A stretch of 63,781 nucleotides of DNA, filler included, from Perkinsus olseni (GCA_013115125.1; 11 parts of 11 records of this genome joined end to end with filler, not necessarily neighbours in it), one strand, 5' to 3'; positions 378-50,455 are shown, counted from the whole stretch's first letter. The notes: generated from the letters alone by a model not told the origin. A program made the numbers and translations.

Positions 378-3300
378 ATGGCACATCTTCTCGACATCGA
401 CCAACGCCGAGCCTATGATCACATTACTGATCAAGTGCGCGAGTATCATGGGCAGCAGCAGTATCATTATATCACGGGTTACCCTGGAACTGGCAAATCA
501 TATCTCACACGATCTCTTATCAACGACCTCGAGGCCGACCACACAGTTGTCACGCTGTCTTGGTACGGCCTGGCTGCGCGTAATTTGCGAGCCGAAGCGA
601 GCACCATCATGGCCTACTTCGGGCTGACATTCTCCAACAGCGGGCAAGTGGCAGACAATAGCTATCTGAGATGTACGGATGTAACAATGGCGCGGATGAT
701 TGAATACCTACGAGCCCATGGCTCCGAAATAATAAGATCCCCGAAGCTCGTAATCGTCATTGACGAGATCGGAGCTCTGCATAACACCCTTCTAGACGCT
801 ATGGCCGGTGCAGTTAGGGAACTGAGGCGGCCGAAGCTGATGAAAATGGGCGATAGCGTTGAGAAACCGTTTGGGGATGCTGCCGTGCTCATGATCGGAG
901 ATCCCTGTCAAACGGGGAGGATGGAATTAACCTCGACCTCAGCTGAATACCCTCCGGCCGTCTACCCCACTAAGGAGTTCTGGCTGGCTGATTCGTGGAA
1001 GGCTATGAGACCGAATGTGTATTTTCTGCGGAACATACACAGAGGCGGGGACCAGGGATATTTGGGGCTCCTGAGAGAGATACGAGCAGCTCCCAGGATA
1101 CGGCCAGGACTGCCTAGATTCTCACCCGAAGCCATGGAGGTGTTACAATCAATTAGAGACAGGGATGGCGGAGAGCGGCCTCCAAGGTAACGCTGACGGG
1201 ACTCGCGTGATTCGCCTGCAAGCGGTACTGACCTACGAAACCACCTAGGCTCATCTGGGCTCACGGTTCCTCTTAGATACGACCATGTGGTTGTATGCTT
1301 CACCAACGCCGAAGTCGACCGACACAACGAGCAGTATCTCAGGAGGCTTCCGGGGGAGGTGTACGAACTAGATGCCGTCGATTCGGGAGGTCCCACTAAC
1401 TCATCGACGACACCGTTCACACCGTCTAAGGACTTCCTCAAATCAGTCTCTCGACTAGGGTATAGAGAGCGAGTGAACCTGAAGGTCAACTGTAGAGTAA
1501 TGGCGACGGTTAACAGCACGGGACGTACCGGGAAGGCGGCCTTCTATAATGGGATGATGGGTAAGGTACTGCGTATATATCGCAACCTGAACGAAGAACC
1601 CGTCGTGGTGGTGAAGTTTGACGATGTTGAAGATCCCGTGCATGTCGAGCGTGAGACACTGACCATTCGCAATAAGGATGGCTCTATCCGCTTTGAGAGA
1701 CGACAAACTCCTCTGGTGCCTTGTTATGCTGCTACTGGTCATAAACTGATAGGAACCAACCTTGCGGGCTTGTGGGTCCACCTACCGAATAGGCACGGTA
1801 GAGTAGACAGCAGCATTCAAGACTACTGGCTGTCTAGCTGGCTCGAAGGAGTGGTCTATACGGTCCTCAGTCGCATCGGTGAACGGCAGAATGTTAAAGT
1901 CTTCCCGATCCGTCGTACTGATGAACCAGCACTCCTGCATCCAATCTTCTCCATGAGCTCGGCGGCACTAGCCTTCGATGCGGAGTGCGCCGAGAGGGAC
2001 TGGTTGACATTGAACAAGTCGGAGGAGGCTCCGGAGAATAGGGCGCCAACAACTGCGGCAGCACAGCAGATTGGCATATCAGAATCACTCAACCAGTCCC
2101 TAGAACAGGTTACTGGTGCCGTGCTGGAGCTAGCAGGTGAAGTGCGCTCGCTAAAATCCAAATCCATGGTCACGCAGCACTACACCACCAAGAGACGAAC
2201 CTCGGTCTCAGGTGAGTGACTCACCGTGAGTCGTACATGATCATTCCGCTCCTTCGGATCAAGTGCTAGCATTTGAGTCAGGTGATCCCATCAATCCCGT
2301 CTTCTTCTGCGCGCAGAGGCCTGATCTGGAACAGAAGATCGACTCCCTGCCAACCTCAGTGCAGGTCCAGTTCTACGACATGTTAGACGAGAGGCTCAAC
2401 TTGACACATGTTCGGCCGACCCACGAGCAAGTACAACAGTTACTTACCGACGTCATCAACCAAGCGAGGGCTCCTGATACGCCGACTCCCCCGGACGGTA
2501 AGGTTTCCCCCGAGGCTCACGACGGCAGCTTGGCTTCTCTTTCCACACCACGTGATCTTCATGGCCAAGCTGGAGGCCGTCAGAGTCCTGCTGCTGAAGC
2601 TGATCCCTCAGAAGATCCAGCAGATGCGGCCGATGTTGAAAGCTTGTCACGAGATGAAGACTTTCTGCCAGAGGATCTCGATCCCGACAGCGATAGCGAC
2701 GTCAGCCAGGAATCTCCTGGAGGACCTACCGAGATCCCTCCTCGGTACGACGACCCCCCAGCAGGAGAGGTTGGCTATGGTGATGAGCCCTTCACTGTCT
2801 TTGAAGGTGGAATCTACGACGTCGTCTCTGAGTACCTGAAATGTAAACCTCACTACCGCTTGGTTAATGGCTGCATCGAAGAACTTAAGACCAAGCGGAA
2901 GACCTGTTACCTCGAGTGTCGGAGGTCAGTGTCAACTCGGAACGACGGGCGCGAGGCCTCTAGGGGTTCCAGACCGGATTGGCGACTATGGCCTGCCTTC
3001 ACCTGCAAACTGAGGAGGATCAAGGTGCAGCAGAACGGGTCTCTCTGCCATATGTATCCACTAGGAGGAGTTGAAGCTACCAACGAGGAATGGAGAAATC
3101 ACTCACACTTTCCCGGTACCGAAGAATGCAGAAGTGCACGGATCCCTCCAGACATACTGGATGACTGGCAGATGTGGCTCGCTGAGCAGCCATGCATACC
3201 AACTGCGCAGCTGAAAGCGAAGTCTCGCCAAAAGTGTATCGATGGGCAATACTCTGCATCGACCATCGAATTCATAACACAGAAGGGGCTCGAGAACTAC

Positions 3301-48738: not shown

Positions 48739-50455
48739 CTACATAGCCGGGACACCACTGCCGCTTGGAGAGCGTTGCTTGCTCTTGATGACATTGTCCA
48801 CCTCTTCAGCGAGCGCTTCAAACAGCTTACCAATCTGCACCGGAGACCACGTCTCCTAGAGAGTTACCGACAACAACAAAGAAGTCTCACAGATGAACGC
48901 AAGAGCTCTCGCCTGGAAATTACAGCCAGCCCCGAAATGACGAACCACTTTGAAGGCTGAAGTCCCGGACTGTCGCGAAGACTTACATTAGCACCAGTCA
49001 TTGCAGACGTTCTAAAGCATAAAAGCCCATTTTCCTGGCAGAACTCCTCCGCCTCCTGTGCCGACACAGCCTGATCATTGTAACATCCCATAGTCCACAC
49101 CAAGAGAGAGCTGACATTATGTCAGTGACATACCTGGTCCGATTCCGGTAAATCTGCCTTGTTACCAGCCACCGCAATACGAACATCCGGCGGGCCTTTA
49201 CTGCGCAGCTCGCTGACCCAGAACTTCACAGACTCGAACGACTCTCTCGAACCAACATCATACACGACGACAGCACCTTAAACGCCACAGCGATGACAGC
49301 TGATCAAAAAGCAGATCAAACGGACTAACAGGTACAATCAGTGGAGTATTCCGGTTGACTCAGGAAGGAACGCATGCCTGGAGCCTATTACTACCTGCTG
49401 CATCTCGGTAGTACAATGGAGCCATGGCTCTGAACCGCTCCTGTCCACCTAGCGAGGAGAAATGCCGGTCCTTCGTGTTCATCCCTCAAGCTACTACCGG
49501 TATCCCAGATGTGCAATTTCAGCTGCGTGTTAGAGCTCGGCAGTCGAACTATTTGCTGTAGGAATGCCGCACCGATAGTAACCTCGTGGAACGGCGGGAA
49601 TCGGCCTTGACAGAACCTTAGCGCCATTGACGATTTACCTGAACCAAGCTTAGCATAAACAGTGACGTTTCAAAGGATGAAAACCCGTACTACGAGCTTC
49701 TGCGAGCGGGATACACTAAACCGTAAGTGACTCAATTGATGAAAATTTGATTCTCAGCAGAAGCGAGAAACGGCTCATTCGTTTGAAATTCGTCCAGACT
49801 TCCGGGATCTCATCCAGGAGGACTTTGTTCGTATCGCATATCATGTGCGTCGCCCACGGACAGCATCCAAGATGTGTGAGCATTCAAAATCCGTTTACAG
49901 GCGCTCGCAGGGGCAGTGCACCTGCGAGTTCCAATCGCTTTAAATTATTCACGTAACTAATGAATCTGACATTCCTCCGCACCGAAAATCGTCGGGAATC
50001 ACGAGCTTAACTCTCACAACGTTCAGAACAGGGGAATGAAATCTTGCAGAAGTAAGCCAGATGCAGACGTCGTCGTGAGCTCAAGAACGCGGAAAAGTTC
50101 AGAGCTCCTTCTCGCCAGAATCCAAAACCCCGTGCCCCTGACTTACCAACACCTGAATCCCCCAAAAGCACTATTTTGGATTCGATACCACTCGGAGAAG
50201 CTCGACTACCAGTCTGAACAGGAGGTTTCACTGTCTATACGAACTCTGGTTCCACCACAGACGAGAGTTTCTCGAATCGCTCGGAGCCGCTGAGTGCACG
50301 ATAGCGACTTTCGCAGGCCCTACACTGTAGGGCCTACAGGTTAATCGCAGGCCCTTCGTTTCACTACACCTTCACATTAGTACTACCACATTCAATCCAC
50401 CAGTTCCACGAGCTCCTGCGGTCTGGCCCGAGTCTGTCGACTGCGCACATCCCAT
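48739..50455 (-). CDS. RAB5B: Rab5b-type small GTPase (N-terminal MGC, no C-terminal cysteines), multi-exon
   Basis: MGCAQS first exon; KIVLLGDSGVGKS, HEVTIGAAF, IWDTG|GQERF..APLYYRDA, GNKADL, TSA; ends GSGVPAM*. Confidence 0.85.
50318..50339. other. Excision-type footprint (inferred target CCCTACAG) in Rab5b intron 1
   Basis: CCCTACA + CTGTAGGG + CCTACAG. Confidence 0.75.

Follow-up and report, generated by a model that had tools for sequence, protein, structure and literature searches.

The closest described counterparts of the sequences discussed here are the excision footprints of the Ac/Ds transposons. According to the available excerpt of one study, these are insertions in the form of a palindrome, whose centre is the complement of the base beside the element; in yeast their arms reach up to 20 nt, and microhomology is frequent (PMC5873905). 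In a stretch of 63,781 bases from Perkinsus olseni (GCA_013115125.1; hereafter the window) there are motifs of 22 bases, called scars below, which we interpret as excision footprints of a cut-and-paste transposon that makes an 8-bp target site duplication (TSD) and flank hairpins and that most likely belongs to the hAT superfamily. We give this interpretation a probability of roughly 0.75.

The likeness to Ac/Ds in yeast, Arabidopsis and Candida, as far as the excerpts of PMC5873905 and PMC1978519 describe it, lies in palindromes that stem from flank hairpins and are centred in the same way, with microhomology at the joint. The footprints in Candida, however, are heterogeneous (28 types in 128 revertants, most with arms of at most 3 nt, in the excerpt of PMC5873905), whereas here one product dominates. 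Moreover, those footprints were obtained in an induced assay, whereas the window holds a natural genomic population. The P nucleotides of V(D)J recombination, touched on in the excerpt of PMC1978519, match what is proposed for the scars in that the hairpin forms on the DNA that is kept, is opened off its centre and gives rise to palindromic additions. They differ in that RAG and Transib form the hairpin exactly at the border, which gives an even palindrome (8+8+8) of a kind without a match here, in that P runs usually measure 1-4 nt, and in that there is no TSD. In rice, natural scars of excision have been recognised by genome comparison, but 8 of 94 excisions were 'perfect', the rest being deletions or variable fillers, and the excerpt of that report describes no stereotyped product (PMC4423477).

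The chemistry of hAT footprints is thus known; a near-deterministic product and the natural density found here are new to our knowledge, although an individual 7+8+7 product may be among those already described for Ac/Ds in yeast. A full-text search of the literature returned no report of hAT elements or of such scars in Perkinsus.

The motif and its fixed geometry

Each scar consists of the first seven bases of an 8-mer X, the reverse complement of the whole of X, and the last seven bases of X (7+8+7). The window comprises 11 contigs of 5,638-5,780 bases each, sorted by length and linked by N44-TTAATTAATTAA-N44, with 62,901 non-N bases in all. An earlier note on this DNA, made from the sequence alone, had listed seven sites on what it took to be unrelated contigs, namely perfect copies starting at 2211, 16518, 26838 and 50318, a copy with one mismatch at 48265, and extended forms at 5659-5685 and 43856-43894. 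On reading, all seven are as it described them, the contigs are indeed separate records joined together, and its chance expectation of about 2e-4 is what 63781 x 4^-14 gives. A scan of the full window found ten perfect scars and six with one mismatch (Table 1). In 200 within-contig shuffles there were no perfect copies, and one-mismatch copies had a mean of 0.025; three two-mismatch copies were observed against a mean of 0.225 in the shuffles. No match with up to one mismatch was present in 38,340 bases of unrelated metagenome DNA. Scars occur on 7 of the 11 contigs, or on 8 if the extended variant on contig 8 is included. The 16 scars with at most one mismatch amount to about one per 3.9 kb of non-N sequence, so that the earlier figure of about one per 10 kb was an underestimate, but this density comes from 63 kb of short contigs in which repeats and divergent haplotypes may be over-represented, and the genome-wide figure may differ.

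The length of X and the position of the arms are equally restricted. In the window scan there were no perfect copies at lengths (k) of 5-7 or 9-13; at k=4 there were 22, which is chance level with just 6 constrained positions. When the outer arms were offset by 0-3 bases on either side, matches appeared at offsets 1/1 only. The 8+8+8 form (offsets 0/0), which corresponds to a hairpin exactly at the element border, had 0 matches, as did offsets 2/2, and the matches recorded for k=9 at offsets 1/3 and 3/1 (3 and 1) are the same k=8 sites, extended by chance. With up to one mismatch allowed, k=8 at offsets 1/1 gave 16 matches and every other combination of length and offset with at least 12 constrained positions gave 0-2. 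The highest of these were k=6 at offsets 0/0 with two and k=9 at offsets 1/1 with one, the latter a by-product of the nested scars at 57150 and 57165. The enrichment at k=8, whose absence from the genome would by the earlier note speak against its reading, is therefore present in the window and confined there to that length; the geometry fits hAT chemistry and no other variant that was tested. The signature can be found in a single genome, essentially without false positives.

A possible route of excision and repair

The insect hAT element Hermes nicks one nucleotide into the flank. From the form of the product we infer the steps of a comparable mechanism here, the superfamily of the transposon, and a repair route by annealing or microhomology. 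The element would insert and thereby duplicate an 8-mer x1..x8. On excision, the transposase would nick either flank a single base away from the element; the 3'-OH set free there would attack the opposite strand, so that one hairpin would form on the left (x1..x7-x8'-x7'..x1') and another on the right (x8'..x2'-x1-x2..x8). Both hairpins would then be cut by host nucleases on the 3' side, 8 nt or more away from the tip. This would expose 3' tails at both ends, x8'..x1' at the left one and, on the opposite strand, x1..x8 at the right one. These tails, being perfectly complementary over 8 nt, would anneal, and once any longer flaps had been removed, synthesis across the two 7-nt gaps and ligation of the nicks would complete the repair. 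The product would be x1..x7 + x8'..x1' + x2..x8, i. e. the empty site plus 14 nt. Our own derivation agrees here with what had been proposed from the first sites: hairpins that are opened 8 nt or further back, anneal by way of the inverted TSD and are filled in yield exactly 7+8+7.

Departures from this product are few. A search for the two 7-mers with any spacer between them, provided that it did not exceed 45 nt and that 4 or more bases on either side were palindromic, returned exactly 12 sites, which are the ten perfect scars and the extended variants at 5659 and 43856, and none in ten shuffles. Among the 12 long-palindrome footprints whose arms are intact, ten are hence of the 7+8+7 form. 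In both variants no inverted copy has lost more than one of its 8 nt, and the joint is a 2-nt microhomology (5659) or a 9-nt filler (43856). Joints of these two kinds, microhomology and templated filler, are typical of end joining after long 3' tails. At 43856, the 9-nt filler, together with 4 nt from the left inverted copy and 1 nt from the right one, recurs as an identical 14-nt sequence about 50 nt downstream; short microhomologies bound the filler. Given this identity (43867-43880 and 43914-43927), the filler looks copied from nearby, which points to a polymerase-theta-like or synthesis-dependent activity. In this one case, the filler resembles the familiar templated insertions of polymerase theta in its copied appearance and its microhomology bounds. 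A short classical form with x8' x1' between the 7-mers was observed three times against 0.5 in 10 shuffles, which is too weak to call.

A stronger version of the proposal is that repair is almost deterministic: the flank hairpins would be cut no nearer to their tips than the TSD boundary, the inverted TSD would serve for annealing, and imprecise excisions would write the same +14-nt scar each time. To this we give slightly less than an even chance. Bolder still is the idea that the opening takes place at exactly 8 nt and is made by the transposase complex itself instead of a host nuclease; it arises because at 43856, where the tails would have remained unannealed, each side carries exactly 8 palindromic nt.

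A candidate for a relative of the responsible transposon resides in the window itself. The non-autonomous element at 56901-57774 has perfect 13-bp terminal inverted repeats (TIRs) of the CAGGG... type (CAGGGTGGTAAAT; 56909-56921 and 57754-57766), an 8-bp TSD (TACTGTCT; 56901-08 and 57767-74) and subterminal repeats of the GAAATTYCC type. The TIRs of hAT elements follow a consensus of the YARNG type, and by its short TIRs and 8-bp TSD the element is classified as hAT-like on sequence grounds. It was the only candidate with both TIR and TSD outside trinucleotide repeats, even in relaxed scans, against a chance expectation of about 0.02 by our own estimate.

The same mechanism could also have been driven by an agent of another superfamily, for example by a Mutator-like element (MULE) related to the MULE transposase domain encoded on contig 1 (about 3700-4010). 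MULEs form flank hairpins too, and Muta1 has TSDs of 8 or 9 bp according to the available excerpt of PMC5499845. The same excerpt, however, gives 9-11 bp as the TSD length of the family otherwise, together with long TIRs and mostly precise excision (more than 90% in Muta1). Perfect scars of k=9, or anywhere in the range 9-11, are absent from the window, and its sole complete element has 13-bp CAGGG-type ends and not the long TIRs of a MULE. In addition, the one-base offset is documented for Ac/Ds in the excerpts of PMC5873905 and PMC1978519, and no such statement was found for MULEs. A MULE as the agent is hence unlikely, even if it is the most serious competitor of a hAT transposon.

A switch of template during replication, in which 8 nt would be copied from the opposite strand before the polymerase returns, would require no transposon at all. 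Short inverted local copies are a hallmark of this process, and the filler at 43856 is evidence of local templated synthesis in this DNA. Mutations of this type vary in length and mostly start from microhomology nearby or from a near-palindrome that is already there. Yet a template switch offers no reason for exactly 8 nt and one-base offsets at 16 unrelated sequences without a common microhomology, nor for the missing lengths of 5-7 and 9-13, and we consider it very improbable.

Alleles, independent assemblies and effects on genes

Contig 5, which carries four scars, was compared with the assembled Logan contigs of four runs (X1, X2, X7 and X8) from four studies on one organism. For one of the four scars, that at 26838, an empty allele was found. 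One X7 contig omits exactly 14 bases at 26839 and is left with a single 8-mer CATCAGTG. This contig has 563 nt, 20 other differences (96% identity) and a depth of 724.4 of 724.4. Contigs of X2 and X8 span the site without the deletion; X1 offers none at this place. Two allele classes extend across the surrounding gene, a copy of pyruvate:NADP+ oxidoreductase, in the DNA runs X1 and X2; the empty form is therefore an allele or a very recent paralogue from the same organism. The orthologues of P. chesapeaki and P. marinus are continuous at this site (...LDIS(N/A)ADLPF...), whereas the frame of the window changes at 26838-26847, and scripted removal of the 14 nt yields a single frame of 668 aa (25324-27341). 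This shows that the motif at 26838 is a derived insertion relative to both the allele and the orthologues. Self-BLAST of the 11 contigs gave no paralogous copies usable as further empty sites; its matches were confined to trinucleotide repeats and two short repeats, either inverted or direct.

The extended scar at 43856 has a similar effect. It splits a gypsy-type integrase, with the Integrase_H2C2 domain upstream and the rve domain downstream, and after scripted removal of 31 nt a single frame of 862 aa (41720-44336) joins the zinc-finger and core domains. Breaks of open reading frames (ORFs) coincide with scars at 26838 and 43856, and the intact long ORFs, i. e. a retroelement ORF of 1890 aa and that of a calcium-dependent protein kinase (CDPK), are free of scars.

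An artefact of sequencing, library or assembly, such as fold-back chimeras, is a further alternative, and one of library or assembly had been named in the earlier note itself as a ground for refutation. Palindromic chimeras are known from whole-genome amplification (available excerpt of PMC13265396), and the contigs of the window are short. Nevertheless, the same scars are found at the same places in contigs assembled independently from the four runs, both DNA-like and spliced RNA-like. The scar at 27869 is present in contigs of X1 and X2 (DNA) with 0 differences and within spliced RNA-like contigs of X7 and X8, and together with that at 28469 it lies on 1,369-nt contigs of X1 and X2 (27602-28970) that again show 0 differences. 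The spliced contigs skip GT..AG introns at 27923-27986 (64 nt; X7 and X8) and 28103-28149 (47 nt; X8). The depth of scar-bearing contigs equals that of their flanks, and the one-mismatch and nested copies indicate that the scars evolved in place. An artefact of assembly or of a single library is thereby excluded, although contigs from one organism have no bearing on populations, and an artefact of any kind has next to no probability.

Equally little can be said for the scars being functional hairpin modules, either regulatory or removed or bypassed in expression, instead of neutral remains. As read from the sequence, every motif can form two alternative 7-bp hairpins and has a 6-nt direct repeat at its flanks, and one motif lies in a transcribed gene copy. 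However, the copies show no conservation of sequence and decay by substitution. RNA-like contigs retain the scars at 23461 and 27869, and X8 spans 26839 without a deletion. Furthermore, the gene copy hit at 26838 (24917-27634) is pseudogene-like in other respects, having an in-frame stop near 25321 and lacking a segment near 25140, between the motifs GCGET and ATGCSSIWG. A P-element footprint, in which an 8-bp TSD is accompanied by leftovers of the element's ends, does not fit, as the scars hold neither shared foreign sequence nor element-end remnants and all their letters are derived from the target.

Several observations weigh against excision by a hAT transposon as formulated here. The hAT target consensus is nTnnnnAn in the Ac/Hermes group or nnnTAnnn in the Buster group, though it is not common to all hAT families. 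No target consensus was seen in the perfect scars, where T at position 2 occurs in 3/10 and A at position 7 in 4/10, and the 16 scar sites, when symmetrised, have no positional bias (nTnnnnAn is not matched). Among the 67 (15+52) ORFs of the window no hAT transposase or dimerisation domain was detected at E<=0.001, which in 63 kb says little, and the sole DDE transposase domain is the MULE domain mentioned above. Opening of a hairpin by Artemis-type activity typically takes place 1-4 nt from the tip; opening at least 8 nt away is far from this and calls for some special route. If the positions of opening simply varied, one would moreover expect non-overlapping footprints with 4-7 palindromic nt, which are absent from the window. 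Nor does the model account for the crowding of at least seven scars into 370 bp of the resident element; local or self-targeted reinsertion would be a guess. At 2211, between two ORFs on the same strand, scripted removal of 14 nt lengthens the upstream ORF from 340 to 352 aa and leaves the two ORFs unfused. Finally, both empty and occupied alleles had been named as counterparts to look for. The former exists at 26838, as described, but no occupied allele (TSD-element-TSD) was seen at the scar sites of contig 5 in the four runs. With these points taken into account, the reading of the scars as hAT-type excision footprints, which the earlier note had put forward, is supported.

If repair is indeed almost deterministic, the genome holds a readable and datable ledger of excisions, with about one entry per 4 kb here, and the scars would rank among the main causes of frameshifts, of short palindromes and of divergence between alleles. 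Excision footprints are usually too varied to be spotted without a comparison of the states before and after, a need that a stereotyped signature would remove. With it, past excisions could be counted, and dated by the decay of the palindromes, which would provide a measure of cut-and-paste activity in the lineage. The signature would also make the preferences of double-strand break repair readable in a deep-branching relative of dinoflagellates and apicomplexans, namely long hairpin opening, annealing and templated filler. Perkinsus parasites are polyploid and largely clonal. Some of the frameshifted gene copies and allele differences in this parasite could be explained by the scars, and annotators would gain a rule that separates real +14 frameshifts from sequencing errors.

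Positions of the scars and other contents of the window

Table 1. Scars, related footprints and the resident element, by position in the window.
Feature	Position	Strand	Remarks
Perfect scar	2211..2232		8-mer GGTGAGTC; between two same-strand ORFs
Extended scar, +19	5659..5685		ATGCCCT / CAGGGCAGGGCAT / TGCCCTG; the 8-nt inverted copies overlap by 2 nt (CA), not 8
Perfect scar	16518..16539		8-mer CCGCTCAT
One-mismatch scar	22140..22161		from the window scan
Perfect scar	23461..23482		8-mer CATTTAGC; gap-free in contigs of all 4 runs
Perfect scar	26838..26859		8-mer CATCAGTG; in decayed pyruvate:NADP+ oxidoreductase copy, frame shifted
One-mismatch scar	27869..27890		transcribed region
Perfect scar	28469..28490		8-mer GGGCGTTT
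Extended scar, +31	43856..43894		gypsy-type integrase; both 8-nt inverted copies (CAGGAAGA) kept, 9-nt filler AGTCTAAAC between them
Likely template of the filler	43914..43927	+	AAGAAGTCTAAACC; identical to 43867-43880 within the extended scar
One-mismatch scar	47747..47768		from the window scan
One-mismatch scar	48265..48286		listed in the earlier note
Perfect scar	49111..49132		8-mer CTGACATA
Perfect scar	50318..50339		8-mer CCCTACAG
Perfect scar	53155..53176		8-mer ATGCTGAT
Non-autonomous hAT-like element	56901..57774		858-bp body 56909-57766; from TIR and TSD scans
One-mismatch scar, older	57150..57171		right arm hit by the later scar at 57165
Perfect scar	57165..57186		8-mer TTCAAGGG; nested in the 57150 scar, inside the resident element
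One-mismatch scar	57260..57281		inside the resident element
Four probable decayed scars (putative assignment)	57366..57523		57366 and 57502 with 2 mismatches, 57460 and 57482 with 3
Perfect scar	58213..58234		8-mer TGGCGAAC

Within the resident element, the scar at 57150 still has one mismatch after scripted removal of the 57165 insert. In the decayed copies at 57460 and 57482 the arms match each other and the middle is altered. A long imperfect palindrome in the element (57138-57224; cttaacgacc...ggtcgttaag) encloses the nested scars; minus both of them it has arms of about 19 nt with 3 mismatches and a 5-nt centre. A scan of metagenome DNA with 18 nt of the element end gave 20 loci, which were rejected as chance matches, since only the 18-mer was common (26 nt at most). 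Long arrays of GAT/ATC-type trinucleotides are common to contigs 4 and 11 (17589-17660, 22274-22316 and several places on contig 11), and the spurious TIR/TSD candidates stem from them.

As for the genes, the CDPK is encoded at 18832-20703 and has 80% identity to proteins of P. marinus and P. chesapeaki; for the oxidoreductase copy, the identities to proteins of the same two species are 71% and 65%. In the RNA-like runs, an allele or paralogue of the oxidoreductase that differs by about 3-5% predominates. The two short introns on contig 5 belong to the gene downstream of the oxidoreductase copy. The window also encodes retroelement ORFs of the Bel/Pao and gypsy types as well as, according to the domain scan of its ORFs, a PIF1-like helicase next to the MULE transposase domain. 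The latter two are part of a chain of five broken ORFs on one strand (369-5401), together with three long ORFs without a family, and the chain may be a single large decayed mobile element.

Contig 6, which carries the ORFs of the Bel/Pao type, has a 71-nt inverted repeat at both ends (29248-29318 and 34877-34947; 95.8% identity). This is unexpected for a long terminal repeat element and may be either an assembly fold-back or a genuine feature.

Contig 5 has some further peculiarities. About 260 bp starting with TAGAGCTGGGCAAC (24526-24785) reach a contig depth of 30-60 times that of the flanks in X1 and X2, and of about 10-20 times in X7 and X8. Together with the many differing flanks at both edges, this depth marks a high-copy dispersed repeat, for which no matching inverted end or TSD was found. 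In another allele, present in each of the four runs, 24526-24791 is missing and 8 different letters stand there instead. At 28540-28923 another allele, again in all four runs, has 37 other letters for these 384 nt, and terminal repeats are not evident. Lastly, one X7 contig links the end of contig 5 (29145) back to its start (23427; 'goes back 5719', side 222). Contig 5 may belong to a tandem array as one of its units, or the path of the assembly may be circular.

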